A stretch of DNA of 64,000 nucleotides from Escherichia coli (GTDB lineage: Bacteria; Pseudomonadota; Gammaproteobacteria; Enterobacterales; Enterobacteriaceae), in the NCBI RefSeq assembly GCF_003018255.1, contig NZ_CP027440.1. The stretch is one strand, 5' to 3'. The notes under the pieces were generated by a model. The model was not told the DNA's origin. It searched no databases and was given only the letters and a program-made list of their open reading frames with translations. Shown piece by piece: positions 463 through 26,904 of the stretch; position 1 is the first letter of the stretch; every line of letters begins with the position of its first letter. A program made the position numbers and the translations under genes.

Positions 463-1753
463 CAGGGAAAGATCACGTAACGCTGCTTTTTTGCACTAAA
501 TAATTCGCATTTTATGTTTAAAAATTGAGATATTCCTCATTACCTGAAGCTGTTTTTTATTGCGTATACATGTTCAAATACTCCTTACATAATTAAGGAG
601 AACAAAATGGAACTTAAAAAATTGATGGAACATATTTCTGTTATCCCCGATTACAGACAAGCCTGGAAAGTGGAACATAAATTGTCGGATATTCTACTGT
701 TGACTATTTGTGCCGTTATTTCTGGTGCAGAAGGCTGGGAAGATATAGAGGATTTTGGGGAAACACATCTCGATTTTTTGAAGCAATATGGTGATTTTGA
801 AAATGGTATTCCTGTTCACGATACCATTGCCAGAGTTGTATCCTGTATCAGTCCTGCAAAATTTCACGAGTGCTTTATTAACTGGATGCGTGACTGCCAT
901 TCTTCAGATGATAAAGACGTTATTGCAATTGATGGAAAAACGCTCCGGCATTCTTATGACAAGAGTCGCCGCAGGGGAGCGATTCATGTCATTAGTGCGT
1001 TCTCAACAATGCACAGTCTGGTCATCGGACAGATCAGGACGGATGAGAAATCCAATGAGATCACAGCTATCCCAGAACTTCTTAACATGATGGATATTAA
1101 AGGAAAAATCATCACAACTGATGCGATGGGTTGCCAGAAAGATATCGCAGATAAGATACAAAAACAGGGCGGTGATTATTTATTCGCTGTAAAAGGAAAT
1201 CAGGGGCGGCTTAATAAAGCCTTTGAGGAAAATTTCCCACTGAAAGAATTAAATAATCCAGAGCATGACAGTTACGCAATTAGTGAAAAAAGTCACGGCA
1301 GAGAAGAAATCCGTCTTCATATTGTTTGCGATGTCCCTGATGAACTTATTGATTTCATGTTTGAATGGAAAGGTCTGAAGAAATTATGCGTGGCAGTCTC
1401 CTTTCGGTCAATAATAGCAGAACAAAAGAAAGAGCCAGAAATGACGGTCAGATATTATATCAGTTCTGCTGATTTAACCGCAGAGAAGTTCGCCACAGCA
1501 ATCCGAAACCACTGGCACGTGGAGAATAAGCTGCACTGGCGTCTGGACGTGGTAATGAATGAAGACGACTGCAAAATAAGAAGAGGAAATGCAGCAGAAT
1601 TATTTTCAGGGATACGGCACATCGCTATTAATATTTTAACGAATGATAATGTATTCAAGGCAGGGTTAAGACGTAAGATGCGAAAAGCAGCCATGGACAG
1701 AAACTACCTGGCGTCAGTCCTTGCGGGGAGCGGGCTTTCGTAATCTTTCCCTG
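463..1753 (+). mobile_element. ISAs1-family (H-repeat type) insertion sequence, copy 1, 1291 bp
   Basis: Imperfect terminal inverted repeats CAGGGAAAGATCACG (left, from 463) and CGTAATCTTTCCCTG (right, ending 1753); single 378-aa transposase ORF; near-identical second copy at 7125..8415. Confidence 0.8.
607..1743 (+). CDS. ISAs1-family DDE transposase (H-repeat-associated protein, YdcC/YhhI-like), 378 aa
   Basis: Protein begins [11 protein letters not shown] and carries the [13 protein letters not shown] region typical of H-rpt proteins; SD AAGGAG 7 nt upstream of ATG. Confidence 0.85.
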
Positions 1754-2359
1754 AACACCGAGGTGCTGAATAACCGCACCACGGATGTGATAAACAACCA
1801 TGCTGAGACCATCGGCAACAATCAGGTGATTGCGGTTACCAACAATCAGATACAGACGGTGGGCGTTAACCAGATAGAGACGGTGGGCAGTAACCAGATC
1901 ATTAAAGTGGGCTCTGTTCAGGTGGAAACGATTGGACTTGTTCGTGCGCTGACCGTGGGCGTGGCGTATCAGACGACGGTAGGTGGCATTATGAACACCT
2001 CGGTGGCCCTGATGCAGTCCTCGCAGATCGGTTTGCATAAATCGTTGATGGTCGGGCTGGGTTATGACGTCAAAGTCGGAAATAACGTTACCTTCACCGT
2101 TGGTAAAACGAAAAAGGATGATACCGGACAGACCGCGATTTACTCCGCCGGTGAGCATCTGGAACTCTGCTGTGGTAAGGCAAGGCTGGTGCTGACTAAG
2201 GACGGACAAATTTTTCTCAACGGCACAAAAATTCATTTGCAGGGTAAGGAGCAGGTTAATGGTGACTCACTGTTGATTAACTGGAACTGTGCAGCCTCGA
2301 AATCCCCACCGAAGACCCCTGATGAAAAGCAGGATACGCCGGATATGAGAGAGTACTGA
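1754..2359 (+). pseudogene. vgrG: vgrG 3' remnant (T6SS spike C-terminal repeat region), 5' part removed at the IS right end
   Basis: Translation shows VgrG-type repeats (VGVNQIETVGSNQIIKVGSVQVETIG); the track ORF start at 1721 lies inside the IS, so there is no native start. Confidence 0.65.
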
Positions 2360-2425
2360 TCCCGTACCTGTTCGGTATTCAGTAACAAACAAGCATTAAA
2401 AATAAACAGAAGAAGGAATTGAATC

Positions 2426-5400
2426 ATGAGCGGAAAACCAGCGGCGCGTCAGGGAGATATGACTCAGTATGGCGGTCCCATTGTCCAGGGTTCGGCAGGT
2501 GTAAGAATTGGCGCGCCCACCGGCGTGGCGTGCTCGGTGTGTCCGGGCGGGATGACTTCGGGCAACCCGGTAAATCCGCTGCTGGGGGCGAAGGTGCTGC
2601 CCGGCGAGACGGACCTTGCGCTGCCCGGCCCGCTGCCGTTCATTCTCTCCCGCACCTACAGCAGCTACCGGACGAAGACGCCTGCGCCGGTGGGGATTTT
2701 TGGCCCCGGCTGGAAAGCGCCTTCTGATATCCGCTTACAGATACGCGATGATGCACTGGTACTCAACGACAACGGCGGACGGAGCATTCACTTTGAGCCG
2801 CTGCTGCCGGGTGAGGCGGTGTACAGCCGCAGCGAGTCAATGTGGCTGGTGCGCGGTGGTAAGGCAGCGCAGCCGGACGGCCACACGCTGGGGCGGCTGT
2901 GGGGGGCGCTGCCGCCGGATATCCGGTTAAGCCCGCATCTTTACCTGGCGACCAGCAGCGCACAGGGACCGTGGTGGATACTGGGGTGGTCAGAGCGGGT
3001 GCCGGGTGCTGAGGACGTACTGCCAGCGCCGCTGCCGCCGTACCGGGTGCTGACGGGGCTGGCGGACCGCTTCGGGCGGACGCTGACGTACCGGCGTGAG
3101 GCCGCCGGCGACCTGGCCGGGGAAATCACCGGCGTGACGGACGGTGCCGGGCGTGAGTTCCGTCTGGTGCTGACCACGCAGGCGCAGCGTGCGGAAGAGG
3201 CCCGCACCTCTTCGCTATCTTCTTCTGACCGTCCCCGCCCTCTCTCAGTCTCAGCGTTCCCCGACACACTGCCCGGTACCGAATACGGCCCCGACAGGGG
3301 TATCCGCCTTTCGGCGGTGTGGCTGATGCACGACCCGGCATACCCGGAGAGCCTGCCCGGTGCGCCACTGGTGCGGTACACGTATACGGAAGCCGGTGAA
3401 CTGCTGGCGGTATATGACCGCAGCAATACGCAGGTGCGCGCTTTCACGTATGACGCGCAGCACCCGGGCCGGATGGTGGCGCACCGTTACGCGGGAAGGC
3501 CGGAGATGCGCTACCGCTACGACGATGCGGGGCGGGTGGTGGAGCAGCTGAACCCGGCAGGCCTGAGTTACCGCTACCAGTATGAGCAGGACCGCATCAC
3601 CGTCACCGACAGCCTGAACCGGCGTGAGGTGCTGCATACAGAAGGCGGGGCCGGGCTGAAGCGGGTGGTGAAAAAAGAACTGGCGGACGGCAGCGTCACG
3701 CACAGCGGGTATGACGCGGCAGGAAGGCTCACGGCACAGACGGACGCGGCGGGACGGCGGACAGAGTACGGCCTGAATGTGGTGTCCGGCGATATCACGG
3801 ATATCACCACGCCGGACGGGCGGGAGACGAAATTTTACTATAACGACGGGAACCAGTTAACGGCGGTGGTGTACCCGGACGGGCTGGAGAGCAGCCGGGC
3901 ATATGATGAGCTGGACAGACTGGTATCGGAGACATCGCGCAGCGGGGAGACAGTACGCTACCGCTACGATGACGTGCACAGTGAGTTACCGGCGACGACA
4001 ACGGATGCGACGGGCAGCACCCGGCAGATGACCTGGAGCCGCTACGGGCAGTTGCTGGCCTTCACCGACTGCTCGGGCTACCAGACCCGCTATGAATACG
4101 ACCGCTTCGGCCAGATGACGGCGGTTCACCGCGAGGAAGGTATCAGCCTTTACCGCCACTATGACAACCGTGGCCGGTTAACCTCGGTGAAAGACGCACA
4201 GGGCCGTGAAACGCAGTATGAGTACAACGCCGCAGGCGACCTGACTGCCGTTATCACCCCGGACGGCAACCGGAGCGAGACACAGTACGATGCGTGGGGA
4301 AAGGCGGTCAGCACCACGCAGGGCGGGCTGACGCGCAGTATGGAGTACGATGCTGCCGGACGTGTCATCAGCCTGACCAACGAGAACGGCAGTCACAGCG
4401 ACTTCAGCTACGATGCGCTGGACCGCCTGGTACAGCAGGGCGGCTTTGACGGGCGGACGCAACGTTATCATTATGACCTGACCGGAAAACTCACGCAGAG
4501 TGAAGATGAGGGGCTTGTCATCCTCTGGTACTACGATGAATCGGACCGTATCACTCACCGCACGGTGAACGGCGAACCGGCAGAGCAGTGGCAGTATGAT
4601 GGCCACGGCTGGCTGAGAGAAATCAGCCACCTGAGCGAAGGCCACCGTGTTGCCGTCCACTATGGCTACGACGATAAGGGCCGTCTGACCGGGGAGCGCC
4701 AGACGGTGGAGAACCCGGAGACGGGGGAACTGCTGTGGCAGCATGAGACGAAACAGGCATACAACGAACAGGGGCTGGCAAACCGCGTCACGCCGGACAG
4801 CCTGCCGCCGGTGGAGTGGCTGGCCTATGGCAGCGGTTATCTGGCGGGCATGAAGCTGGGCGGGACGCCGCTGCTGGAGTACATGCGGGACAGACTGCAC
4901 CGGGAGACGGTGCGCAGCTTCGGCAGCATGGCAGGCAATACAGCCGCATATGAACTGACCAGCACTTACACCCCCGCAGGCCAGTTACAGAGCCGGCACC
5001 TGAACAGCCTGGTGTTTGATTGTGACTATAACTGGAATGACAACGGCGACCTGATGCGCATCAGCGGCCCGCGACAGACGCGGGAATACGGCTACAGCGC
5101 CACGGGCAGGCTGGAGAGCGTGCGCACCCTCGCACCGGACCTGGACATCCGCATCCCGTATGCCACCGACCCGGCGGGCAACCGGCTGCCGGACCCGGAG
5201 CTGCACCCGGACAGTACACTCACAGTGTGGCCGGATAACCGAATCACCGAAGACGCGCACTACCTGTACCGTTACGATGAATACGGCAGGCTGGCGGAGA
5301 AGACGGACCGCATCCCGGCGGGTGTGATACGGACGGACGACGAGCGGACCCACCACTACCACTACGACAGCCAGCACCGCCTGGTGTTCTATACGCGGAT

Positions 5401-6586
5401 ACAGCATGGCGAGCCACTGGTCGAGAGCCGCTACCTTTACGACCCGCTGGGCCGCCGGACGGGTAAACGGGTATGGCGGCGGGAGCGTGACCTGACGGGG
5501 TGGATGTCGCTGTCGCGTAAACCGGAGGTGACGTGGTACGGCTGGGACGGCGACCACCTGACGACGGTGCAGACCGACACCACGCGTATCCAGACGGTAT
5601 ATCAGCCGGGGAGCTTCGCGCCGCTCATCCGCATCGAAACAGACAACGGTGAGCGGGAGAAAGCGCAGCGCCGCAGCCTGGCGGAGAAGCTGCAGCAGGA
5701 AGGGAGCGAGGACGGGCACGGCGTGGTATTTCCGGCTGAACTGGTGCGGCTGCTGGACAGACTGGAGGAAGAAATCCGGGCAGACCGCGTGAGCAGTGAA
5801 AGCCGGGCGTGGCTTGCGCAGTGCGGGCTGACGGTGGAGCAACTGGAAAAACAGGTGGAGCCGGAATACACACCGGCGCGAAAAGTTCATCTTTACCACT
5901 GCGACCACCGGGGACTGCCGCTGGCGCTTATCAGCGAAGACGGCAATACGGTGTGGAGCGCGGAGTATGATGAATGGGGAAACCTGCTTAATGAGGAGAA
6001 CCCGCATCATGTGTATCAGTCATACCGTCTGCCGGGGCAGCAGCATGATGAGGAGTCGGGGCTGTACTACAACCGGAACCGGTACTACGATCCGTTGCAG
6101 GGGCGGTATATCATCCAGGACCCGATAGGGCTGGCGGGGGGAATAAACCCGTACAGTTATGTTATGAACAATCCTGTGCAATGGATTGATCCATTGGGAT
6201 TAGCTCATACTTCAGGAAAATGGAAGGACTGTGGTAAAGGTTGTCGAATCCGAATAGATGGCGATGCTGTTGGTGACGGAAGACATTTGCATTGGGAGTG
6301 TAAAAATGGGAGTGGTGTAATGGGGGAATTTGGAGGTATGTCCCATGGTGAGGATTACTCATCAGCACCAAATAGCATTAAGAAATGTGCAAAAAAATAT
6401 GGTTTCGAGCCAGAACCAAGTAAAGATCTGTCATGCAAAACCTCCGGGCTATCAACTACTGATGCGGCTCTTGCAACTGGTGCTACAATTGGCGCAGGGT
6501 ATGTTATATATAGAGTGATTCGATTTATACCTTCACTTGCACCACCTCTTTGGTGGTCAATACCTGCAAACGTTGTTACTCCATGA
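2426..6586 (+). CDS. rhsE: Rhs family polymorphic toxin, full length (1386 aa): N-terminal domain, YD-repeat shell, PxxxxDPxGL motifs, divergent C-terminal tip
   Basis: N-terminus [31 protein letters not shown] and many YD repeats; DPIGLAGG at ~6120-6140 and WIDPLGL at ~6184-6204; GC-rich core then AT-rich ~125-aa tip; SD GAAGAAGGA upstream. Symbol is by position only. Confidence 0.85.
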
Positions 6587-6957
6587 TTAAAACGGATAAT
6601 GGAGATTATATAATGAGCGATTTTGACATTGTGAGTTCAATTGACTGGCATGATGGGGTTTTGTTAGAAGTAAAAACGACATTCAAAGAATCTCATTTTA
6701 ACATGACGTTATTTATTGACATTTATAAAAATGAGAACATTAGGGAAAAAATGATAGTTGAATTTTCTGATGTAGATGATTTAGTGTTCGCTATGGATTC
6801 TGCTGAGTTAATCGATAATCACAAGTCAGGTAATATAAGTAATGGGTATGTAAAGAAATTAAAAAACAAAAGGATATATAAATTTTTTCTTTATTTTTCT
6901 GATGGCTTATTAAGCATGACATTTAAAAATTTACAATTAATAAAACCATTAGAGTAA
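6583..6957 (+). CDS. putative cognate Rhs immunity protein (RhsI-like, ~124 aa)
   Basis: ATG overlaps the rhs TGA stop (ATGA) around 6583-6586; AT-rich like the toxin tip; no hydrophobic segment. Start could instead be 6550 or 6613. Confidence 0.6.
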
Positions 6958-6995
6958 CCAAATAAAAGGACTGGAGGAATCAGGGGAAGATCATT

Positions 6996-7021
6996 AAAGT
7001 TGTGATTATCATCACAACTTT
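6996..7021. repeat. perfect 11-bp inverted repeat AAAGTTGTGAT-TATC-ATCACAACTTT
   Basis: Read directly; lies ~40 bp after the immunity stop; terminator-like or protein-binding palindrome. Confidence 0.5.
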
Positions 7022-7124
7022 AATCTTGGTTTCACCTTGTTGATTTGATTAAAATTTAATCGCCAAATAATTAAATATATTAGAAAAGGACGTCTGGTGA
7101 ACATTCAAAGTCTTCTTGAGCATA

Positions 7125-8415
7125 CAGGGAAAGATCATCAGAAGTACACTTTTTGTACTAAATAATTCGCATTTTATGTTTAAAAATTGAGATATTCCTC
7201 ATTACCTAAAGCTGTTTTTTATTGCTTATACATGATCAAATACTCCTTACATAATTAAGGAGAACAAAATGGAACTTAAAAAATTGATGGGACATATTTC
7301 TATTATCCCCGATTACAGACAAACCTGGAAAGTGGAACATAAATTGTCAGATATTCTACTGTTGATTATTAGTGCCGTTATTTCTGGTGCAGAAGGCTGG
7401 GAAGATATAGAGGATTTTGGGGAAACACATCTCGATTTTTTAAAGCAATATGGTGATTTTAAAAATGGTATTCCTGTTCACGATACCATTGCCAGAGTTG
7501 TATCCTGTATCAGTCCTGCAAAATTTCACGAGTGCTTTATTAACTGGATGCGTGACTGCCATTCTTCAGATGATAAAGACGTCATTGCAATTGATGGAAA
7601 AACGCTCCGGCATTCTTATGACAAGAGTCGTCGCAGGGGAGCGATTCATGTCATTAGTGCATTCTCAACAATGCACAGTCTGGTCATCGGACAGATCAGG
7701 ACGGATGAGAAATCTAATGAGATTACAGCTATCCCTGAACTTCTTAACATGCTGGACATTAAAGGAAAAATTATCACAACTGATGCGATGGGTTGCCAGA
7801 AAGATATTGCAGAGAAGATACAAAAACAGGGAGGTGATTATTTATTCTCTGTAAAAGGAAACCCGGGGCGGCTGAATAAAGCTTTTGAGGAAAAATTTCC
7901 ACTGAAAGAATTAAATAATCCAGAGCATGACAGTTACGCAATTAGTGAAAAGAGTCACGGCAGAGAAGAAATCCGTCTTCACATTGTTTGCGATGTCCCT
8001 GATGAACTTATTGATTTCACGTTTGAATGGAAAGGTCTGAAGAAATTATGCGTGGCAGTCTCCTTTCGGTCAATAATAGCAGAACAAAAGAAAGAGCCAG
8101 AAATGACGGTCAGATATTATATCAGTTCTGCTGATTTAACCGCAGAGATGTTCGCCACAGCAATCCGAAACCACTGGCACGTGGAGAATAAGCTGCACTG
8201 GCGTCTGGACGTGGTAATGAATGAAGACGACTGCAAAATAAGAAGAGGAAACGCCGCAGAATTATTTTCAGGGATACGGCACATCGCTATTAATATTTTA
8301 ACGAATGATAAGGTATTCAAGGCAGGGTTAAGACGTAAGATGCGAAAAGCAGCCATGGACAAAAACTATCTGGCGTCAGTCCTTGCGGGGAGCGGGCTTT
8401 CGTAATCTTTCCCTG
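7125..8415 (+). mobile_element. ISAs1-family (H-repeat type) insertion sequence, copy 2, 1291 bp, same orientation as copy 1
   Basis: Same terminal repeats (CAGGGAAAGATCA ... CGTAATCTTTCCCTG) and same length as copy 1; internal sequence near-identical with scattered substitutions. Confidence 0.8.
7269..8405 (+). CDS. ISAs1-family DDE transposase (H-repeat-associated protein), 378 aa, copy 2
   Basis: Same length and register as 607..1743 with several substitutions (e.g. [15 protein letters not shown] vs [15 protein letters not shown]). Confidence 0.85.
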
Positions 8416-8986: not shown

Positions 8987-9454
8987 ATGATTATACGACC
9001 AGTCAAACCTTCAGATGTTGAACCATTACTGGATATGCTGCTTGCCAGTGGACAATTTAATCAAGATGGCCTTCATCATGTACAAAAAACACTAACACAT
9101 TATTTCTCAGGTCAATCTGCCGATTTATGGTTTAGTGCAGAACACTTAGGACTGGCAGGGATTGCCTATTGCGCTCCTGAAGTGATGACAAATGATGTCT
9201 GGAATTTATTAATGCACTGGATCAGTCCTTCCCATCAGCGCCAGGGAGTGGGACATCTGCTGATTAACGAAATAGAAAAGGAGCTCACAATTAAACAGGC
9301 AAGACTACTTTTAGTAGAGACCTCCAGCTATGTCGATTTTAGTGCCGCCCGCGCATTTTATACATAACAGGGCTTTATCAATGAAGCTATAATACGCAAT
9401 TACTATGATGTTGGTGAGGATAAATTAATCTTCACTAAAAATATGCAATCGTGA
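8987..9454 (+). pseudogene. GNAT-family N-acetyltransferase with an in-frame TAA (9365-9367); reading frame continues 28 codons to TGA at 9452-9454
   Basis: SD AAGG 7 nt upstream; acetyl-CoA motif QRQGVGH; the stop sits where GNAT motif B expects a lysine (AFYT-stop-QGF). Confidence 0.65.
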
Positions 9455-12859: not shown

Positions 12860-13551
12860 TTCCCACCTCCCGCACTGATGTCGACATACTGCGGCGCGAC
12901 ATCCTGGCTAAAGCGTCGCTGATATTGATTAAGCGGCGAGCTGTCACACGCCGTGGCGTTATCTTCAATAAACTTCACCTGTTCTTCTTCCCACACCGCA
13001 TCCAGCGCCTGGCGGGTGTCGTCACGCTCTTCACTGCGAATCTGTTTTGTGACACTGTCACTTGATAGAGGGCTTCCTGCCAGTTGCAACAGGGCGTCAA
13101 ATAACGCGTACCACGGTGCCTCGCGTTGTTTTAAGCGTCCGCCAAGCAGGGCGAGGATCGGCGCAACGTTGAGTAATCCTTCTTTCGCCTGATCGTCCGG
13201 AAGTATGCTTAAATACTCCAGATACAGCGGTAGATAATCGGGCAGTTCCCTACAATTCAGTTGCAGACCGACCTTTTCATACTCCGCCAGCAGGTCCACC
13301 ATTGCCTGGCCGCGATCGCGGGACTCGGCATGAACATGTTCAAACAGCAGCAGCGACGTGGTGCGCCCGCGGTCAAACACTTCACACCATTCGGCCTGTT
13401 TATCCAGCAGCGGCGCGTTGAGCAGGTCGAGTGCAAAATCGGTGAGCATCGGTGCGTCGCGGCGGATCAACGCCAGCGCGTCCTCCTTACATTCCCACAA
13501 CAGCTCGTCCGGATACTCCATCAACAGGCCGATCACTTTGAGGATCTGCAT
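12856..13551 (-). CDS. narW: nitrate reductase Z assembly chaperone (231 aa)
   Basis: NarJ-like; 4-bp overlap with narV. Confidence 0.9.
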
Positions 13552-15095
13552 TATTCGCCCTCCGCTTTGTCGCGCACTTCGGTGATGTTGATGGCATCGA
13601 TACGGCTACTGTTGAACAGGTTGAATTTGCTGTCCGAGCCGTGGCAACCGTCGCCAAAGGTAAAACCGCAGCCATTGCGTTCTGCGAAGGCATCGCCCGC
13701 CATTTCCCGATGACTGGTTGGAATGACAAAACGGTCTTCATAGTTGGCAATGGCGAGGTAGCGATACATCTCTTCGACCTGGGCGACGCTCAGGCCTACT
13801 TCGTCAATGGCGCGGGTATCGGTAACGCCTTCCACGGTTTGTGAACGCATATAGTGGCGCATCGCCATCATCCGTTTTAGCGCCCGCAGTACCGGACCGG
13901 TATCGCCAGCACTTAACATATTGGCGAGATATTGCACAGGAATACGCAGGCTTTCGATGGCGGGCAGCACGCCTTCGCTTTTCGGCAAGCCGCCCGCATC
14001 AGCGTAGGACTGAATCGGTGACAGCGGAGGAACGTACCAGACCATCGGCAGGGTGCGATATTCAGGGTGCAGCGGTAGCGCCAGTTTCCAGTCCATCGCC
14101 ATTTTGTAGACTGGCGAACGCTGGGCAGCTTCAATCACGTTTTGTGGAATACCTTGTTTCAGGGCTTCTTCGATCACTGAGGGATCGTGCGGATCGAGGA
14201 ACACTTCGCACTGGCGTTCATAGAGGTCAACTTCGCGCTCGGTGCTCGCCGCTTCCTCGATGCGGTCGGCGTCGTAAAGCAGCACGCCCAGATACCGGAT
14301 GCGACCCACGCAGGTTTCTGAGCACACGGTGGGTTGGCCTGACTCAATTCGTGGGTAACAGAAGATGCATTTTTCTGACTTGCCGCTTTTCCAGTTGAAG
14401 TAGATTTTTTTGTACGGACAACCGCTAATGCACAAACGCCAGCCACGGCATTTATCCTGATCGATCAGCACAATGCCGTCTTCTTCGCGTTTGTAGATAG
14501 CGCCGCTTGGGCAGGTCGCCACGCAGCTGGGATTGAGGCAGTGTTCGCACAAGCGCGGTAGGTACATCATGAAGGTGTTTTCAAACTGCCCGTACATCTC
14601 CTTTTGCATGGCCTCGAAGTTGCGGTCACGGGCGCGTTTTTCGAATTCGCCGCCCAACAATTCTTCCCAGTTTGGCCCCCAGATCACTTTGTCCATCCGT
14701 TTGCCGTCAATCAGTGAACGCGGGCGAGCAGTAGGGATATGTTTGCCTTCCGGTGCGCTATGCAAATGTTCGTAGTCGAAGGTGAAAGGTTCGTAGTAAT
14801 CATCAATCTGCGGCACCACCGGGTTGGCGAAGATTTTGGTTATTACGCCCATCTTGCTGCCCAGACGCGGGCGGATCTTGCCATTCACATCACGCACCCA
14901 GCCGCCTTGCCACTCTTCCTGATCTTCCCAGTTTTTCGGATAACCAATGCCCGGTTTGGTTTCGACGTTGTTAAACCATGCGTACTCCATGCCTTCGCGT
15001 CCGGTCCAGACGTTTTTACAGGTCACCGAACAGGTATGGCAGCCGATACATTTATCGAGGTTAAGCACCATGCCGACTTGCGAACGTATTTTCAT
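13551..15095 (-). CDS. narY: nitrate reductase Z beta subunit, Fe-S (514 aa)
   Basis: Several Cys clusters (CIGCHTC, CEHCLNPSCVATCP). Confidence 0.9.
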   Translation of the reverse strand: MKIRSQVGMVLNLDKCIGCHTCSVTCKNVWTGREGMEYAWFNNVETKPGIGYPKNWEDQEEWQGGWVRDVNGKIRPRLGSKMGVITKIFANPVVPQIDDYYEPFTFDYEHLHSAPEGKHIPTARPRSLIDGKRMDKVIWGPNWEELLGGEFEKRARDRNFEAMQKEMYGQFENTFMMYLPRLCEHCLNPSCVATCPSGAIYKREEDGIVLIDQDKCRGWRLCISGCPYKKIYFNWKSGKSEKCIFCYPRIESGQPTVCSETCVGRIRYLGVLLYDADRIEEAASTEREVDLYERQCEVFLDPHDPSVIEEALKQGIPQNVIEAAQRSPVYKMAMDWKLALPLHPEYRTLPMVWYVPPLSPIQSYADAGGLPKSEGVLPAIESLRIPVQYLANMLSAGDTGPVLRALKRMMAMRHYMRSQTVEGVTDTRAIDEVGLSVAQVEEMYRYLAIANYEDRFVIPTSHREMAGDAFAERNGCGFTFGDGCHGSDSKFNLFNSSRIDAINITEVRDKAEGE

Positions 15096-18000
15096 TTTTT
15101 CGCCTCCTGTACCTGATCGCGACCTTCATCATCCAGCCAGTTAACGTTCTTCATCTTGCGGATCATGATGAATTCGTCACGGTTCGAGCCGACGGTGCCG
15201 TAGTAATTAAAGCCCCAGGCCAGCTGCGCGTAACCGCCAATCATATGCGTTGGTTTCGGACAAACGCGGGTGACCGAGTTATGAATGCCGCCGCGCATGC
15301 CAGTTACTTCCGAACCAGGAATATTCATAATGCGTTCCTGGGCGTGATACATCATGGTCATACCCGGCGGTACACGTTGGCTGACCACCGCGCGGGCAGT
15401 CAGCGCGCCGTTGGCGTTAAACACTTCCACCCAGTCGTTATCGACAATGGTCAGTTCACGGGCATCGGTTTCGCTAATCCAGACAATCGGTCCACCGCGA
15501 GAGAGCGTCAGCATTAGCAGGTTTTCACTGTAGGTTGAGTGAATGCCCCATTTCTGATGCGGCGTCAGGAAGTTAAGTGCTTTTTCCGGGAAGCCGTTTG
15601 GCGGTATCTGGCGCATTTCACTGACGCTACGGGTGTCGATAGGCGGGCGATAAGCCACCAGGCTTTCACCAAAAGCACGCATCCACGGATGATCCTGATA
15701 GAGCTGCTGGCGTCCCGACAGCGTGCGCCACGGAATTAACTCATGAACGTTGGTGTACCCCGCGTTATAGGAAACGTGATCGCTTTCCAGACCGGACCAT
15801 GTGGGGCTGGAGATAATTTTACGTGGCTGCGCCTGAATATCGCGAAAGCGAATCTTCTCGTCCTCTTTGTGCAGCGCCAGATGGGTATGTTCGCGTCCGG
15901 TGATCTCGCCCAGCGCCTGCCACGCTTTGACTGCAACATGACCATTGGTTTCCGGTGCAAGAGCCAGAATCACTTCTGATGCGTCAATGGCGGTGTCAAT
16001 CAGCGGACGCCCCTGTGCCGGGCCTTCACGCTTGGTGTAGTTGAGTTTGCCGAGGAAATCGATTTCATCCTGGGTATTCCACGAAATCCCTTTACCGCCG
16101 TTGCCAAGTTTGTCCATCAATGGCCCGAGCGAGGTAAAGCGTTCATAGGTAGCAGGGTAGTCGCGTTCCACCGCTACAATATTCGGCGCGGTTTTACCCG
16201 GGATCAGATCGCATTCGCCTTTGCGCCAGTCGAGCACTTCACACGGCTGGGAGAGTTCTGCCGGAGAGTCATGCAGCAGTGGTTGTAATACCACGTCGGT
16301 TTCTTTGCCAAGATGGCCCACGCACACTTGCGAAAATGCTTTGGCAATACCTTTGTAGATTTCCCAGTCGCTGCGTGATTCCCAGGCCGGATCGACCGCC
16401 GCAGAAAGCGGATGAATAAATGGATGCATATCCGAGGTGTTCATATCGTCTTTTTCATACCAGGTGGCGGTGGGCAGAACGATATCGGAGAACAGGCAGG
16501 TACTGGACATACGGAAGTCGAGCGTCACCAGCAGGTCGAGCTTGCCTTCAATCGCCGCAGTTTGCCACTCGACTTCTTCTGGTTTGATCCCGTCGCTGGC
16601 ACCGAGTTCCTCACCCTGAATCCCACTTTCGGTTCCCAGCAGATACTTCTGCATATACTCGTGACCTTTGCCGGAGGAGCCAAGCAGGTTAGAACGCCAG
16701 ACAAACAAATTACGCGGATGATTGCTGCCCCTATCTGGTTGTTCGCAGGCCATGCGTAAATCGCCCGATTTCAGCGCCTGGGCGGTGAATTCTGTGGGGG
16801 ATAATCCGGCCTTGTCGGCTTCAGCTTTAATCCCGAGCGGGTTACACCCCAGCTGCGGCGCAGAAGGTAGCCAGCCCATACGTTCGGCACGAACGTTGAA
16901 ATCAATCAGATGACCGCTGTACTTACTGGCATCGGCGAGCGGTGAAAGTAACTCCTGAGCAGAGACTTTTTCATAGCGCCATTGACTGGAATGATTGTAG
17001 AAAAACGAGGTGCTGTTCATCTGGCGCGGTGGGCGGTTCCAGTCGAGCGCAAAGGCCAGCGGCAACCAGCCAGTTTGTGGGCGCAGTTTTTCCTGACCGA
17101 CATAGTGTGCCCATCCGCCACCGCTTTGCCCGACACAACCGCAGAAGATCAGCATATTGATCATTCCCCGGTAGTTCATGTCCATGTGGTACCAGTGGTT
17201 AACACCTGCGCCGAGGATAATCATCGAGCGCCCATGCGTTTTATGGGCAGTATCGGCAAATTCACGAGCGATGGTTTCAATATACTGGCGCGGCACACCG
17301 GTAATTTGCTCACCCCAGGCTGGGGTGTACGGTTTGATTTCAGCGTAATCTTTCGCGCTGTTTTCATCTTCCAGCCCGCGATCGAGGCCGTAATTCGCCA
17401 GTACCAAATCATAAACGCTGACCACCGGACAGGTGTTGCCATCGGCTAATGTCAGGTTTTTAACGGGCAATTGGCGCACCAGGACCGGATTGTGTTTTAC
17501 GCTGCGAAAATGCGGATTTTCAATGCCGCCAAAGTAGGGGAAGGCCACGCCTGCAACGGCATCATGTTGACCGAGCAGAGTTAACGACAATTCGGTTTCC
17601 GTACCGGCGGCAATGGATTCCAGATTCCATTTGCCTTTTTCTCCCCAGCGAAAACCAATCGAACCGTTCGGCACCACCAGTTCGCCTGCTGTATTAACTG
17701 CTACGGTTTTCCACTGCGGATTGTTGCTTTCGCCCAGTCCATCTACCAGGTCAGACGCGCGGATCATGCGCCCGGGTACGTAGCTGCCATCGTCGCGAGG
17801 TTCCAGCATTACCAGCATCGGCATGTCGCTGTAGCGGCGGCAGTAGTTGATAAAGTAGTCGCTGGGATTATCGAGATGAAACTCTTTTAAAATCACATGG
17901 CCCATTGCCATCGCCAGGGCGCTATCAGTGCCTTGTTTTGGTGCCAGCCACTGGTCGCACAATTTGGCCACTTCAGAGTAGTCAGGGGTAATTGCGATGG

Positions 18001-18832
18001 TTTTAGTGCCTTTGTAGCGTACTTCGGTAAAGAAATGGGCGTCCGGCGTACGTGTCTGCGGTACGTTAGACCCCCAGGCGATGATGTAACTGGAGTTATA
18101 CCAGTCGGCAGATTCTGGCACGTCGGTTTGCTCACCCCAGGTCATCGGCGAGGCGGGCGGCAGGTCGCAATACCAGTCGTAGAAGCTTAAACAGGTGCCA
18201 CCTAACAGCGACAGATAGCGTGTTCCGGCGGCGTAAGAAACCATCGACATCGCCGGAATCGGCGAGAACCCGGCAACGCGATCCGGGCCGTAAGTTTTGA
18301 TGGTCCAGACGTTAGCGGCGGCAATCAGCTGATTTAGCTCCTGCCAGTTGGAGCGGATAAAGCCACCGCGTCCACGCACTTGTTTATAGCTCAGGCACTT
18401 TTGCGGATCGTTCATAATCGATGCCCACGCCAGTACCGGATCGCTGTGTTGCTTGAGGGCTTCGCGCCACAGTTCAATCAGTCGTTTACGAATGAGCGGG
18501 TATTTCAGGCGGTTAGCGCTGTAGAGATACCAGGAGTAACTTGCGCCACGCGGGCAGCCGCGAGGTTCATGATTTGGCAGGTCAGGGCGAGTGCGCGGGT
18601 AGTCGGTCTGTTGGATTTCCCAGGTCACCAGACCATTTTTAACGTAGATTTTCCAGCTACAGGAGCCTGTACAGTTAACACCGTGGGTGGAACGCACGAT
18701 TTTGTCGAACTGCCAACGCTGGCGATAGCTGTCCTCCCAGTCGCGGTTGCTGTGCATCACCTGTCCGTGACCATCGGCAAAGGTTTCGCCCTTTTGTTTA
18801 AAGTAGCGAAAGCGATCCAAAAGTTTACTCAT
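15092..18832 (-). CDS. narZ: nitrate reductase Z alpha subunit, molybdopterin (1246 aa)
   Basis: Track ORF trimmed to the MSKLLDRFRYF start (ATG at 18830-18832); ATGA overlap with narY. Confidence 0.9.
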   Translation of the reverse strand: MSKLLDRFRYFKQKGETFADGHGQVMHSNRDWEDSYRQRWQFDKIVRSTHGVNCTGSCSWKIYVKNGLVTWEIQQTDYPRTRPDLPNHEPRGCPRGASYSWYLYSANRLKYPLIRKRLIELWREALKQHSDPVLAWASIMNDPQKCLSYKQVRGRGGFIRSNWQELNQLIAAANVWTIKTYGPDRVAGFSPIPAMSMVSYAAGTRYLSLLGGTCLSFYDWYCDLPPASPMTWGEQTDVPESADWYNSSYIIAWGSNVPQTRTPDAHFFTEVRYKGTKTIAITPDYSEVAKLCDQWLAPKQGTDSALAMAMGHVILKEFHLDNPSDYFINYCRRYSDMPMLVMLEPRDDGSYVPGRMIRASDLVDGLGESNNPQWKTVAVNTAGELVVPNGSIGFRWGEKGKWNLESIAAGTETELSLTLLGQHDAVAGVAFPYFGGIENPHFRSVKHNPVLVRQLPVKNLTLADGNTCPVVSVYDLVLANYGLDRGLEDENSAKDYAEIKPYTPAWGEQITGVPRQYIETIAREFADTAHKTHGRSMIILGAGVNHWYHMDMNYRGMINMLIFCGCVGQSGGGWAHYVGQEKLRPQTGWLPLAFALDWNRPPRQMNSTSFFYNHSSQWRYEKVSAQELLSPLADASKYSGHLIDFNVRAERMGWLPSAPQLGCNPLGIKAEADKAGLSPTEFTAQALKSGDLRMACEQPDRGSNHPRNLFVWRSNLLGSSGKGHEYMQKYLLGTESGIQGEELGASDGIKPEEVEWQTAAIEGKLDLLVTLDFRMSSTCLFSDIVLPTATWYEKDDMNTSDMHPFIHPLSAAVDPAWESRSDWEIYKGIAKAFSQVCVGHLGKETDVVLQPLLHDSPAELSQPCEVLDWRKGECDLIPGKTAPNIVAVERDYPATYERFTSLGPLMDKLGNGGKGISWNTQDEIDFLGKLNYTKREGPAQGRPLIDTAIDASEVILALAPETNGHVAVKAWQALGEITGREHTHLALHKEDEKIRFRDIQAQPRKIISSPTWSGLESDHVSYNAGYTNVHELIPWRTLSGRQQLYQDHPWMRAFGESLVAYRPPIDTRSVSEMRQIPPNGFPEKALNFLTPHQKWGIHSTYSENLLMLTLSRGGPIVWISETDARELTIVDNDWVEVFNANGALTARAVVSQRVPPGMTMMYHAQERIMNIPGSEVTGMRGGIHNSVTRVCPKPTHMIGGYAQLAWGFNYYGTVGSNRDEFIMIRKMKNVNWLDDEGRDQVQEAKK

Positions 18833-21559: not shown

Positions 21560-21636
21560 TACCGCTATTGAGGTAGGTCAATTTGCGCAGGCGGATTATT
21601 TTGTGGCAAACACGTGTTCTTTTTGATTTCGCGCAA
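21560..21636 (+). promoter_or_regulatory. fdnG control region: NarL 7-2-7 inverted heptamers (TACCGCT-AT-TGAGGTA) and FNR-like half-sites (TTGAT-TTCG-CGCAA)
   Basis: Motifs read directly at 21560-21575 and 21623-21636; spacing to the fdnG ATG fits a class II FNR promoter with an upstream NarL site. Confidence 0.55.
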
Positions 21637-21700: not shown

Positions 21701-24700
21701 ATGGACGTCAGTCGCAGACAATTTTTTAAAATCTGCGCGGGCGGTATGGCTGGAACAACGGTAGCGGCATTGGGCTTTGCCCCGAAGCAAGCACTGGCTC
21801 AGGCGCGAAACTACAAATTATTACGCGCGAAAGAGATCCGTAACACCTGCACATACTGTTCCGTAGGTTGCGGGCTATTGATGTATAGCCTGGGTGATGG
21901 CGCGAAAAACGCCAGAGAAGCGATTTATCACATTGAAGGTGACCCGGATCATCCGGTAAGCCGTGGTGCGCTGTGCCCGAAAGGGGCCGGTTTGCTGGAT
22001 TACGTCAACAGCGAAAACCGTCTGCGCTACCCGGAATATCGTGCGCCAGGTTCTGACAAATGGCAGCGCATTAGCTGGGAAGAAGCATTCTCCCGTATTG
22101 CGAAGCTGATGAAAGCTGACCGTGACGCTAACTTTATTGAAAAGAACGAGCAGGGCGTAACGGTAAACCGTTGGCTTTCTACCGGTATGCTGTGTGCCTC
22201 CGGTGCCAGCAACGAAACCGGGATGCTGACTCAAAAATTTGCCCGCTCCCTCGGGATGCTGGCAGTAGACAACCAGGCGCGCGTCTGACACGGACCAACG
22301 GTAGCAAGTCTTGCTCCAACATTTGGTCGCGGTGCGATGACCAACCACTGGGTGGATATCAAAAACGCTAACGTCGTAATGGTGATGGGCGGTAACGCTG
22401 CTGAAGCGCATCCCGTCGGTTTCCGCTGGGCGATGGAAGCGAAAAACAACAACGATGCAACCTTGATCGTTGTCGATCCCCGTTTTACGCGTACCGCTTC
22501 TGTAGCGGATATTTACGCACCTATTCGTTCCGGTACGGACATTACGTTCCTGTCTGGCGTTTTGCGCTACCTGATCGAAAACAACAAAATCAATGCCGAA
22601 TACGTTAAGCATTACACCAATGCCAGCCTGCTGGTGCGTGATGATTTTGCTTTCGAAGACGGTCTGTTCAGCGGCTACGACGCTGAAAAACGGCAATACG
22701 ATAAATCGTCCTGGAACTATCAGTTCGATGAAAACGGCTATGCGAAACGCGATGAAACACTGACTCATCCGCGCTGTGTGTGGAACCTGCTGAAAGCGCA
22801 CGTTTCCCGCTACACGCCGGACGTTGTTGAAAACATCTGCGGTACGCCAAAAGCCGACTTCCTGAAAGTGTGTGAAGTGCTGGCCTCCACCAGCGCACCG
22901 GATCGCACAACCACCTTCCTGTACGCGCTGGGCTGGACGCAGCACACCGTGGGTGCGCAGAACATCCGTACTATGGCGATGATCCAGTTGCTGCTCGGTA
23001 ACATGGGTATGGCCGGTGGCGGCGTGAACGCATTGCGTGGTCACTCCAACATTCAGGGCCTGACCGACTTAGGTCTGCTCTCAACCAGCCTGCCGGGTTA
23101 TCTGACGCTGCCGTCAGAAAAACAGGTTGATTTGCAGTCGTATCTGGAAGCGAATACGCCGAAAGCGACGCTGGCTGATCAGGTGAACTACTGGAGCAAC
23201 TATCCGAAGTTCTTCGTTAGCCTGATGAAATCTTTCTACGGCGATGCCGCGCAAAAAGAGAACAACTGGGGCTACGACTGGCTGCCGAAGTGGGACCAGA
23301 CCTACGACGTCATCAAGTATTTCAACATGATGGACGAAGGCAAAGTCACCGGTTATTTCTGCCAGGGCTTTAACCCGGTTGCGTCCTTCCCGGACAAAAA
23401 CAAAGTGGTGAGCTGCCTGAGCAAGCTGAAGTACATGGTGGTTATCGATCCGCTGGTGACTGAAACCTCTACCTTCTGGCAGAACCACGGCGAGTCGAAC
23501 GATGTCGATCCGGCGTCCATTCAGACTGAAGTATTCCGTCTGCCTTCGACCTGCTTTGCTGAAGAAGATGGTTCTATTGCTAACTCCGGTCGCTGGTTGC
23601 AGTGGCACTGGAAAGGTCAGGACGCGCCGGGCGAAGCACGTAACGACGGCGAAATTCTGGCGGGTATCTACCATCATCTGCGCGAGCTGTACCAGGCCGA
23701 GGGTGGTAAAGGCGTAGAACCGCTGATGAAGATGAGCTGGAACTACAAGCAGCCGCACGAACCGCAATCTGACGAAGTGGCGAAAGAGAACAACGGCTAT
23801 GCGCTGGAAGATCTCTATGACGCTAATGGCGTGCTGATTGCGAAGAAAGGTCAGTTGCTGAGTAGCTTTGCGCATCTGCGTGATGATGGTACAACCGCAT
23901 CTTCTTGCTGGATCTACACCGGTAGCTGGACAGAGCAGGGCAACCAGATGGCTAACCGCGATAACTCCGACCCGTCCGGTCTGGGGAATACGCTGGGATG
24001 GGCCTGGGCGTGGCCGCTCAACCGTCGCGTGCTGTACAACCGTGCTTCGGCGGATATCAACGGTAAACCGTGGGATCCGAAACGGATGCTGATCCAGTGG
24101 AACGGCAGCAAGTGGACGGGTAACGATATTCCGGACTTCGGCAATGCCGCACCGGGTACGCCAACCGGGCCGTTTATCATGCAGCCGGAAGGGATGGGAC
24201 GCCTGTTTGCCATCAACAAAATGGCGGAAGGTCCGTTCCCGGAACACTACGAGCCAATCGAAACGCCGCTGGGCACTAACCCGCTGCATCCGAACGTGGT
24301 GTCTAACCCGGTTGTTCGTCTGTATGAACAAGACGCGCTGCGGATGGGTAAAAAAGAGCAGTTCCCGTATGTGGGTACGACCTATCGTCTGACCGAGCAC
24401 TTCCACACCTGGACCAAGCACGCATTGCTCAACGCAATTGCTCAGCCGGAACAGTTTGTGGAAATCAGCGAAACGCTGGCGGCGGCGAAAGGCATTGCCA
24501 ATGGCGATCGTGTCACTGTCTCCAGCAAGCGTGGCTTTATCCGCGCGGTGGCTGTGGTAACGCGCCGTCTGAAACCGCTGAATGTAAACGGTCAGCAGGT
24601 TGAAACGGTGGGTATTCCAATCCACTGGGGCTTTGAGGGTGTCGCGCGTAAAGGTTATATCGCTAACACTCTGACGCCGAATGTCGGTGATGCAAACTCG

Positions 24701-24748
24701 CAAACGCCGGAATATAAAGCGTTCTTAGTCAACATCGAGAAGGCGTAA
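21701..24748 (+). CDS. fdnG: formate dehydrogenase-N alpha subunit, selenoprotein (1015 aa), in-frame UGA at 22286-22288 decoded as Sec
   Basis: Track ORFs 21701..22288 and 22337..24748 are in one frame separated only by TGA; Tat signal MDVSRRQFFKICAGG. Confidence 0.95.
22289..22330 (+). promoter_or_regulatory. putative SECIS stem-loop directly 3' of the fdnG UGA
   Basis: Small palindrome GCAAG-TC-TTGC within ~25 nt of the UGA; exact structure not computed. Confidence 0.4.
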
Positions 24749-24760
24749 GGGGGCGAACAG

Positions 24761-25645
24761 ATGGCTATGGAAACGCAGGACATTATCAAAAGGTCCGCAA
24801 CTAACTCCATCACGCCGCCTTCTCAGGTGCGTGATTACAAAGCAGAAGTCGCAAAACTTATCGACGTTTCCACCTGTATCGGCTGTAAAGCCTGTCAGGT
24901 GGCGTGTTCGGAGTGGAACGACATCCGTGATGAAGTGGGGCACTGCGTCGGGGTTTACGATAACCCCGCCGATCTGAGCGCCAAGTCCTGGACGGTGATG
25001 CGCTTTAGCGAAACCGAACAGAACGGCAAGCTGGAGTGGCTGATCCGTAAAGACGGCTGTATGCACTGTGAAGATCCGGGCTGCCTGAAGGCGTGCCCGT
25101 CTGCTGGTGCAATCATTCAGTACGCTAACGGGATTGTCGATTTCCAGTCGGAAAACTGCATCGGCTGTGGTTACTGCATTGCCGGGTGTCCGTTTAATAT
25201 TCCGCGCCTCAACAAAGAGGATAACCGGGTATATAAATGCACGCTCTGCGTCGATCGCGTCAGCGTCGGCCAGGAACCGGCTTGTGTGAAAACCTGTCCG
25301 ACCGGGGCTATCCACTTCGGCACCAAGAAGGAGATGCTGGAGCTGGCGGAACAGCGCGTGGCGAAACTGAAAGCGCGTGGTTACGAACATGCTGGCGTCT
25401 ACAACCCGGAAGGGGTCGGTGGTACGCACGTTATGTACGTGCTGCATCACGCCGATCAGCCGGAGCTGTATCACGGTCTGCCGAAAGATCCGAAGATCGA
25501 CACCTCGGTAAGCCTGTGGAAAGGCGCGTTGAAACCGCTGGCAGCGGCTGGCTTTATTGCCACTTTTGCCGGGTTGATTTTCCACTACATCGGTATTGGC
25601 CCGAATAAGGAAGTGGACGATGACGAGGAGGATCATCATGAGTAA
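24761..25645 (+). CDS. fdnH: formate dehydrogenase-N beta subunit, 4Fe-4S (294 aa)
   Basis: Ferredoxin-type Cys motifs ([23 protein letters not shown]). Confidence 0.95.
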
Positions 25646-26291
25646 GTCGAAAATGATTGTGCGCACCAAATTTATTGATCGCGCCTGTCACTGGACCGTG
25701 GTGATTTGCTTCTTCCTGGTGGCGCTGTCCGGGATTTCGTTCTTCTTCCCGACGCTGCAATGGCTGACGCAAACCTTCGGTACGCCGCAGATGGGACGCA
25801 TTTTGCACCCGTTCTTCGGCATTGCGATTTTCGTCGCGCTGATGTTTATGTTTGTGCGTTTTGTACATCACAATATCCCGGATAAGAAGGATATTCCGTG
25901 GCTGTTGAACATTGTCGAAGTATTAAAAGGCAATGAGCACAAAGTGGCGGATGTTGGTAAGTACAACGCCGGGCAGAAGATGATGTTCTGGTCGATCATG
26001 AGCATGATTTTCGTGCTGCTGGTGACCGGGGTGATTATCTGGCGTCCGTACTTTGCGCAGTACTTCCCGATGCAGGTTGTTCGCTACAGCCTGCTGATTC
26101 ACGCGGCTGCGGGTATCATCCTGATCCACGCCATCCTGATCCATATGTATATGGCATTCTGGGTGAAAGGATCGATTAAAGGGATGATCGAAGGGAAGGT
26201 GAGCCGTCGCTGGGCGAAGAAACACCATCCGCGCTGGTATCGTGAAATCGAGAAGGCGGAAGCGAAAAAAGAGAGTGAAGAAGGGATATAA
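25638..26291 (+). CDS. fdnI: formate dehydrogenase-N gamma subunit, cytochrome b556 (217 aa)
   Basis: Start set at [12 protein letters not shown]; overlaps fdnH end. Confidence 0.9.
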
Positions 26292-26312
26292 TCTCTTTTG
26301 AACTTTAAGCTG

Positions 26313-26345
26313 AAAATGGCGCTTTAAGAAGCGCCATTTTTTTAT
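26313..26345. terminator. rho-independent terminator after fdnI (usable from both strands)
   Basis: AATGGCGC-TTTAAGAA-GCGCCATT hairpin followed by a T7 run. Confidence 0.75.
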
Positions 26346-26626
26346 TGCGTAACCAGACGGCGCAGTCGCGACACATCCACCGTTTTTTCAGCCTCTGCCA
26401 GGCTCCAGGCGTTTTGCAGATTCAGCCACATTTGCGGCGAACTGCCGATCACCACGGAAAGTTTAATCGCCATTTCCGGAGTGAGCGCCGCTTTTCCGGT
26501 CAGCAATCGGCTTGCCGTTGAGGGCGCAATTTCCATTGCTCTGGCAAACTCGCGCAGGCTGACATTAAGTTCGTCCAGTGATTCCTGAATAATGTCCCCC
26601 GGGCGGGGATGATTGGCCATTTTCAT
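26342..26626 (-). CDS. yddM: HigA-like HTH (XRE-family) antitoxin (94 aa)
   Basis: Short HTH protein directly downstream of the toxin gene with a 1-nt overlap. Confidence 0.75.
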
Positions 26627-26904
26627 CAGTGATAGTCCTCGTAATCCAGTATGTATGCATCGCCATTGACGAATTCAAATGTGATTCGCCAGTTGCCCGA
26701 GACAGATATCGCCCAAATTCCATCGCGATCGCCGCTTAACGGGTGTAGTCGGTAACCGGGCATATCGATATCAGCAAGACAGCTTGCTGCATCAATCACA
26801 GCGAGTCGGTGGCGTAATCGTTTGACTTGCGTCGGTATAACGCCGGAGGTTTTGCCGAGAAGAAACAAGTCACGCAATCCCTTGTGTCTGAAATTCATTA
26901 TCAT
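26626..26904 (-). CDS. HigB-like RelE/ParE-superfamily toxin (92 aa)
   Basis: Toxin-first gene order; size and sequence consistent with HigB-type killer proteins. Confidence 0.7.

Follow-up and report, generated by a model that had tools for sequence, protein, structure and literature searches.

The fdnG gene in a 64-kb stretch of Escherichia coli DNA (the whole stretch analysed, referred to here as the window) is interrupted by an in-frame TGA at 22286–22288, which we read, with a probability of about 98%, as the programmed selenocysteine (Sec) recoding site of E. coli fdnG. A hairpin follows the codon, and its main support comes from a covariance model and comparative data, not from free energy. 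The site is already known in every respect and is entirely ordinary. Its value is that of a calibration point, or positive control, for a programmed in-frame stop in the window, a use that the initial annotation had suggested for what it called a known feature. The hallmarks of a programmed stop seen here are a UGA codon, agreement with a curated RNA family, conservation both within the species and beyond it, and covariation at synonymous sites. Coordinates are collected in Table 1.

Table 1. Positions in the window of the recoding site, its hairpin, the fdn genes and two further in-frame stops; hairpin numbering counts the U of UGA as +1
Feature	Position	Strand	Basis or remark
fdnG, catalytic alpha subunit of formate dehydrogenase-N	21701–24748	+	1015 residues, selenocysteine at 196; TIGR01553, 1KQF_A, RefSeq
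UGA codon 196, recoded as selenocysteine	22286–22288	+	C next (UGAC); opposite X196 of 1KQF_A
Peptide at Sec196, V-U-HGPTVASLAPTFGR			expected tryptic peptide
Rfam SECIS_3 (RF01989), full match, UGA included	22283–22341	+	84.3 bits (gathering score, 63); model positions 1–59 of 59
Apical SelB-binding stem-loop, GGUAGCAAGUCUUGCUCC	22300–22317 (+15 to +32)	+	Rfam structure line, ViennaRNA minimum-energy fold, RNAalifold (74 sequences)
Lower stem, +6 to +13 with +38 to +46	22291–22331	+	minimum-energy fold; 8 pairs around one bulge, register 1 off the Rfam consensus
fdnH, iron–sulfur beta subunit, operon shared with fdnG	24761–25645	+	TIGR01582, 482 bits
fdnI, cytochrome b gamma subunit, operon shared with fdnG	25638–26291	+	NF007558, 486.5 bits
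ddpB	34169–35191	-	TAG at codon 76 (34964–34966); CAG in the closest genome
GNAT ORF	8987–9367		ends at TAA 9365–9367 within ARAFYT*QGF; 28 in-frame codons beyond

A single in-frame TGA in fdnG

The translated fdnG frame runs on the plus strand from ATG at 21701 to TAA at 24746–24748, a total of 1016 codons. Its sole internal stop is the TGA at codon 196, which lies in the context GCG CGC GTC TGA CAC GGA CCA ACG GTA GCA AGT CTT GCT CCA ACA TTT GGT CGC GGT, and 819 more codons follow in the same frame, free of stops up to the TAA. The initial annotation had stated that only this TGA interrupts the frame, which then resumes in register, and had identified the triplet as the Sec196 codon of formate dehydrogenase-N; both statements stand, as there is one internal stop, its codon number is 196 and it falls opposite the non-standard residue X196 of chain 1KQF_A. 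The split that had been foreseen for a naive ORF caller also occurred, since the mechanical ORF list cuts fdnG into 21701–22288 (195 amino acids) and 22337–24748 (803 amino acids). RefSeq annotation in the matching genomes listed has one fdnG coding sequence spanning the TGA. The two ORFs should accordingly be replaced by one fdnG coding sequence in which selenocysteine is entered as a translation exception at codon 196.

The gene had been named fdnG beforehand, and the name was confirmed by profile, synteny and nucleotide identity. NCBIfam TIGR01553 (formate dehydrogenase-N alpha) matches on both sides of the TGA, with profile positions 1–194 in the N-terminal half (279.5 bits) and 196–1009 in the C-terminal half (1316.8 bits; cut-off, 814.2), so that the halves abut at the Sec codon. 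Over residues 1–1015, FdnG aligns with the crystal-structure chain PDB 1KQF_A at 2395 bits. The translation contains a twin-arginine signal, SRRQFFK, at residues 4–10 and an N-terminal Cys cluster of the CxxCxxxC type for a [4Fe-4S] centre (C-TY-C-SVG-C, residues 50–57), and the stretch holding the Tat signal and the Cys cluster is identical to 1KQF_A. The gene order is yddG–fdnG–fdnH–fdnI, with yddG divergent and upstream, and with yddM/adhP beyond fdnI on the other side.

K-12 fdnG (b1474) is the same gene, with the same codon number, operon and neighbours. The UGA and the 48 nt downstream of it are identical in the window, and the differences between the two genes, 47 of 3048 nt and four amino acids (L342F, E366A, S666A and N933A relative to K-12), all lie outside the site. 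Against its closest genome, the window fdnG shows 28 differences. Gene conversion from fdoG, the paralogue encoding formate dehydrogenase-O, was considered as their source and rejected because most of the 28 sites carry the K-12 fdnG base and not an fdoG-specific one.

A SECIS hairpin directly downstream of the UGA

The hairpin lies inside the coding sequence directly 3′ of the UGA and spans +6 to +46. Rfam SECIS_3 aligned over its full length, with an E-value of 1.6e-19 when 7 kb was searched and of 1.4e-18 for the full window, and its match at 22283–22341 was the only one in the 64-kb window at which any Rfam family reached its gathering score. Membership of SECIS_2 (RF01988), the fdhF type, was rejected, the score being 28.8 bits against a gathering score of 70.

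The base of the apical stem is formed by the pairs G15–C32 and G16–C31. These are followed by a bulged U17 (22302) and by a 5-bp helix, 18–22/26–30, composed of A18–U30, G19–C29, C20–G28, A21–U27 and A22–U26, which carries the loop G23 U24 C25 (22308–22310). The apical helix thus begins at +15, 11 nt past the UGA; an 11-nt spacing rule for the E. coli SECIS was reportedly set out by Liu et al. in 1998. In bacterial SECIS elements a bulged U is conserved, as are a G and a U that lie side by side and unpaired in the loop (PMC8704476); the 11-nt spacing and the U17/G23/U24 numbering used here follow that review and a direct comparison with K-12 fdhF. The two strands of the window together contain 2354 TGA trinucleotides, of which one alone, that of the fdnG site, combines U17, G23 and U24 with a 7-bp apical helix.

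Folding of about 45 nt after the UGA, the check that the initial annotation had put forward, gave the expected hairpin, but its energy alone was not significant: the free energy is -11.9 kcal/mol (z = -1.18), and 21 of 200 shuffled sequences fold equally well. Because z is only -1.18, we did not use folding energy as evidence of function. The claim of a SelB-type hairpin is instead carried by the SECIS_3 score of 84.3 bits, the bulged U17, the loop G23/U24 and the covariation described below. The interval proposed for the site, 22286–22330, was also right in that it takes in the UGA and all but the very end of the hairpin, whose outermost pairs, in both Rfam and ViennaRNA, extend to 22331, 1 base further. 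By sequence, structure and evolutionary criteria, the hairpin is a bacterial SECIS.

Covariation at synonymous positions

For comparison, 100,044 species genomes were scanned with the pattern GTNTGACAYGGNCCNACNGTNGC, which encodes V-U-H-G-P-T-V-A with third positions free, and at least 120 sites were obtained. Among the matches listed, 119 of 120 stand in the formate dehydrogenase context DNQARV*HGPTVA(S/G)LAPTFGRGAMTN; one match in Streptomyces (L054), outside any such context, was treated as a chance occurrence of the pattern and left out. At least 119 homologous sites, from many genera and also from other phyla, have a TGA at the aligned position. The pattern itself fixes +1 to +8, +10–11, +13–14, +16–17 and +19–20, and the invariance of U17 and C4 was therefore not counted as evidence. 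Together with the window, the 119 sites listed gave 74 distinct 66-mers, which were counted on the Rfam structure.

Among the matches listed, the apical helix is 99.4% paired over the 74 distinct sequences, and G23 and U24 are invariant (74 of 74). The pair +18/+30 is G–C in 59 sequences, A–U in 9 and G–U in 6; +21/+27 is A–U in 53, C–G in 19 and G–C in 2; and +22/+26 is A–U in 44 and G–U in 30, again among the matches listed. Two of the apical pairs, +18/+30 and +21/+27, have changed on both sides (30 cells), and all four positions involved are synonymous third positions, as is +24. Since the conservation and covariation of the apical hairpin affect synonymous third positions, protein constraint cannot explain them.

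In 500 shuffles, neither the covariation score nor the percentage paired of the real alignment was ever reached, and sliding the 3′ partners by 1–3 columns reduced pairing from 92% to 26–50%. RNAalifold, run on the 74 sequences, independently predicted the same apical helix. Among the matches listed, the codon for Thr200 is ACG in 114 of 115 sites and that for Ser203 is AGU in 75 of 75. The fourfold-degenerate sites of the flanks have an entropy of 1.3–1.7 bits, in contrast to the constrained synonymous sites of the apical hairpin. The aligned sequences indicate that the apical helix is maintained in evolution by compensatory change.

The lower stem behaves differently. Among the matches listed, it is 86.3% paired in the Rfam register with 0 pairs changed on both sides, and 49 of 74 sequences can form a canonical +9/+41 pair, whereas 21 of 74 have the alternative +9/+42. 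The register appears to shift between lineages, enterics departing from the Rfam consensus. Neither the Rfam register nor the one preferred by ViennaRNA holds in all sequences, and we therefore make no claim for the lower stem.

Relation to known selenocysteine sites

The experimentally defined model of a bacterial SECIS is that of K-12 fdhF at Sec140 (SECIS_2, RF01988). It shares the architecture and register of the fdnG hairpin, with UGACACGG at its start, an apical helix from +15, a bulged U17 and G23/U24 in the loop, but has the loop GGUC on a 4-bp helix where fdnG has GUC on a 5-bp helix. Unlike FdnG, the fdhF product is the cytoplasmic Fdh-H, of 715 amino acids with Sec at 140. In the 119 sites listed, the periplasmic Sec formate dehydrogenases of Pseudomonadota and other phyla have a TGA at the aligned codon, followed by the same apical hairpin; they differ by compensatory changes in the stem (GGUGGCAGGUCUUGCCCC, GGUGGCCAGUCUGGCCCC and others) and in a loop that is sometimes GUU. 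At the protein level, the alpha subunits of Desulfovibrio FdhAB (6SDR and 8CM4), which are selenocysteine-containing according to their depositors, are homologous to the window protein, at about 959 bits.

K-12 fdoG has Sec196 and the same 48 nt after the UGA as the window, although its locus adjoins fdhD and fdhE and identity over the remainder of the gene is about 75%. Between K-12 fdnG and fdoG, the longest stretch free of differences is 71 nt (gene positions 583–653); it comprises codon 195, the UGA and 65 nt beyond it, through +68, with the SECIS included, and the runner-up is 36 nt.

Proposed decoding of UGA196

In the mechanism that we propose, the mRNA encoding H197–G211 (HGPTVASLAPTFGRG) doubles as the bacterial SECIS hairpin, and the apical stem-loop would be bound by the C-terminal domain of SelB, as in the literature on the identical sequence. 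SelB would carry GTP together with the selC product in its charged form, Sec-tRNA(Sec), which is made via SelA and SelD. With UGA196 in the ribosomal A site, the tethered SelB would compete with release factor 2 by delivering Sec-tRNA(Sec), and translation would run on to give a 1015-residue FdnG in which Sec196 is expected to serve as a ligand of the molybdenum centre. For delivery by SelB–GTP, competition with release factor 2 and molybdenum ligation we draw on established knowledge of E. coli; the binding of SelB, the need for selC and the presence of selenium in the peptide come from literature concerning the identical sequence. The genes annotated across the 64-kb window include none of selA, selB, selC and selD, and no tRNA genes lie within it; the sel genes are assumed from the species to be present in the source strain.

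Mass spectrometry, the other check put forward in the initial annotation, has already been published for E. coli MC4100: residue 196 of both FdnG and FdoG was Sec and in no case Cys, and translation in E. coli ends at codon 196 when Sec-tRNA(Sec) is missing (PMC3636253). For the transfer of the MC4100 data to the window, the comparison is with K-12 MG1655, whose site sequence is identical to that of the window.

Alternative explanations

A TGA that splits a gene in a mechanical ORF list could have arisen by nonsense mutation or by an error in sequencing, which would make fdnG a pseudogene here; the window does hold an unprogrammed nonsense codon, in ddpB, and the free energy of the hairpin taken alone is not significant. 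Against this stand the identity of the TGA and the next 48 nt to K-12 fdnG, the recurrence of TGA at the same position in the homologous sites of many genera, and the 819 stop-free codons downstream. All but one of 5426 complete E. coli genomes match the 3.5-kb fdnG region, and each of these 5425 also matches the 171 bases that surround the Sec196 site, with at least 95% identity in 5406 of 5451 matching records, whereas the ddpB TAG is in none of the complete genomes searched. The SECIS_3 match and the covariation likewise speak against decay, and we hold a pseudogene to be extremely improbable. UGA followed by C, as here, is regarded as a leaky stop context in E. coli, and the region encodes the highly conserved peptide HGPTVA(S/G)LAPTFGRGAMTN; the UGA might thus be read by a standard near-cognate tRNA (for Trp or Cys), with the downstream conservation reflecting protein constraint only. 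However, conservation and covariation fall on synonymous third positions, residue 196 of PDB 1KQF is non-standard, and both the exclusive presence of Sec over Cys at that residue and the termination at codon 196 that follows loss of Sec-tRNA(Sec) (PMC3636253) argue against standard decoding, which we consider very unlikely.

The same recoding mechanism would also operate if the locus were fdoG and the enzyme formate dehydrogenase-O, since FdoG likewise has Sec196 and the first 48 nt after its UGA are identical. We assign the gene to fdnG and not to this paralogue because only 47 of its 3048 nt depart from K-12 fdnG, against an overall identity of 74.9% between K-12 fdnG and K-12 fdoG. Its neighbours are yddG, fdnH, fdnI and yddM rather than fdhD and fdhE, and the gamma subunit scores 486.5 bits with NF007558 (Fdh-N) against 268.1 bits with NF007924 (cytochrome b556 formate dehydrogenase subunit). 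That the locus is fdoG is thus practically inconceivable, and selenocysteine recoding of fdnG is the reading that we retain.

Other in-frame stops in the window

The initial annotation had set the fdnG site against two unprogrammed in-frame stops, and both are present: the TAG at codon 76 of ddpB and the TAA at 9365–9367 of the GNAT ORF. The identical 61-mer around the ddpB TAG was found in 0 of 4035 matching complete genomes, and this TAG can thus be put down to a private nonsense mutation or to a read error. The sequence at the GNAT TAA is identical in three complete-genome records. Neither stop is a UGA, and in the 64-kb window neither coincides with an Rfam match. Both lack the hallmarks given above for the fdnG site and look like ordinary gene decay or sequencing error.

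An extended identical block in Enterobacterales

An identical block of at least 66 nt around Sec196 is common to fdnG, fdoG and 24 sampled Enterobacterales sites; the set was selected for identity over the 66-nt block, and a nearly invariant peptide of the active site is encoded by the same block. Enterobacter, Citrobacter, Klebsiella, Yersinia, Photorhabdus and Providencia are among the genera that have it. The block might exceed what the SelB hairpin needs, through a constraint beyond the SECIS (acting, for instance, on ribosome pausing, the lower stem or the 20 nt that follow the hairpin) or through recurrent gene conversion between fdnG and fdoG, a suggestion that we offer tentatively and think unlikely to hold. 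In the flanks of those 24 sites, synonymous sites are only about 50–60% identical.

Sequence identity around the Sec codon and divergence of the fdn genes

The paralogous K-12 formate dehydrogenase genes fdnG and fdoG are 74.9% identical overall, and their longest identical run, of 71 nt, lies around the Sec codon. Taking the U of UGA as +1, this run spans codon 195 to position +68 (22283–22353 in the window), ending about 20 nt beyond the outermost pair of the SECIS hairpin. At least 24 of the sampled sites, drawn from several genera of Enterobacterales, shared the same 66-mer; this set was chosen for identity over the block, and the flanking third positions of its sites were only about 50–60% identical.

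We compared the genes of the window with those of the closest genome (NZ_AP045072.1). Nearly all other genes compared were 100% identical, with a 1-nt difference each in ddpF, ddpD, ddpB and fdnI, whereas narH (98.1%) and narZ (96.4%, with 2 gaps), within 13551–18832, and fdnG (99.1%) and fdnH (98.6%), within 21701–25645, had diverged. In sequence, the two divergent pairs look like patches of recombination. Conversion from fdoG was considered as the source of the fdnG differences and rejected, because at most of these positions the window has the K-12 fdnG base.

Features of the window discussed here (coordinates in nt)
Feature	Position	Strand	Remarks
ISAs1 transposase, two copies	607–1743; 7269–8405		About 97% identical to one another
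VgrG/gp5 C-terminal fragment	1748–2359		Between the ISAs1 copies
Rhs core protein gene	2426–6586		Between the ISAs1 copies
Small ORF	6613–6957		Between the ISAs1 copies
GNAT acetyltransferase ORF	8987–9367	+	126 aa; TAA at 9365–9367
HigA-family antitoxin (yddM) and RelE/ParE-family toxin genes	26342–26904	−	One-base overlap
ddpB	34169–35191	−	340 codons; TAG at codon 76 (34964–34966)
dosC (diguanylate cyclase) remnant	40020–40184	−	165 nt; adjoins intact dosP
ydeP	57264–59543	−	Annotated as acid resistance putative oxidoreductase

In-frame stops and a non-Sec relative

The initial annotation had set the programmed UGA of fdnG against in-frame stops in ddpB and a GNAT ORF. Codon 76 of ddpB, TAG in the window, is CAG in NZ_AP045072.1, and this change is the sole difference between the two copies of the gene. 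Because an identical 61-mer around the TAG was absent from all 4035 complete E. coli genomes that gave a match, and because the closest genome has CAG, the stop is either a nonsense mutation private to this sequence or an error of sequencing. At the GNAT stop, the reading frame (...ARAFYT*QGFINEAII...) continues for 28 more in-frame codons, which look like the missing C-terminus. The 61 nt at this stop had an identical copy in three complete-genome records; the remaining sampled matching genomes carried no annotation at the position of the ORF.

NCBIfam ties ydeP to formate dehydrogenase H through a subfamily model (TIGR01701, 'FdhF/YdeP family oxidoreductase'). As its 759 codons contain no internal stop and no SECIS match, ydeP is a natural non-Sec relative.

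Flanks of the fdn operon and other features

Upstream of fdnG, which is anaerobically regulated, an FNR-like TTGAT-N4-xxCAA motif, TTGATTTCGCGCAA, occupies 21623–21636 (+), starting about 78 nt before the start codon, and there is another, weaker match at 21568. The motif would fit the anaerobic regulation. Between fdnI and yddM, AAAAAAUGGCGCUUCUUAAAGCGCCAUUUU (26307–26353, both strands) contains a GC-rich hairpin with a U-run on its 3′ side, and is most simply read as a bidirectional intrinsic terminator common to these convergent genes. All Rfam matches to this segment were below threshold: STnc320 scored 28.8 bits (cut-off 50), and the others were STnc240, TarB and SdsR. The yddM–toxin pair lies directly 3′ of the fdn operon, and the genome of strain 14EC020 carries an IS200C transposase between fdnI and yddM.

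Elsewhere, the closest genome carries a third ISAs1 copy upstream of the region at 607–8405, and its dosC fragment is annotated as a partial pseudogene.
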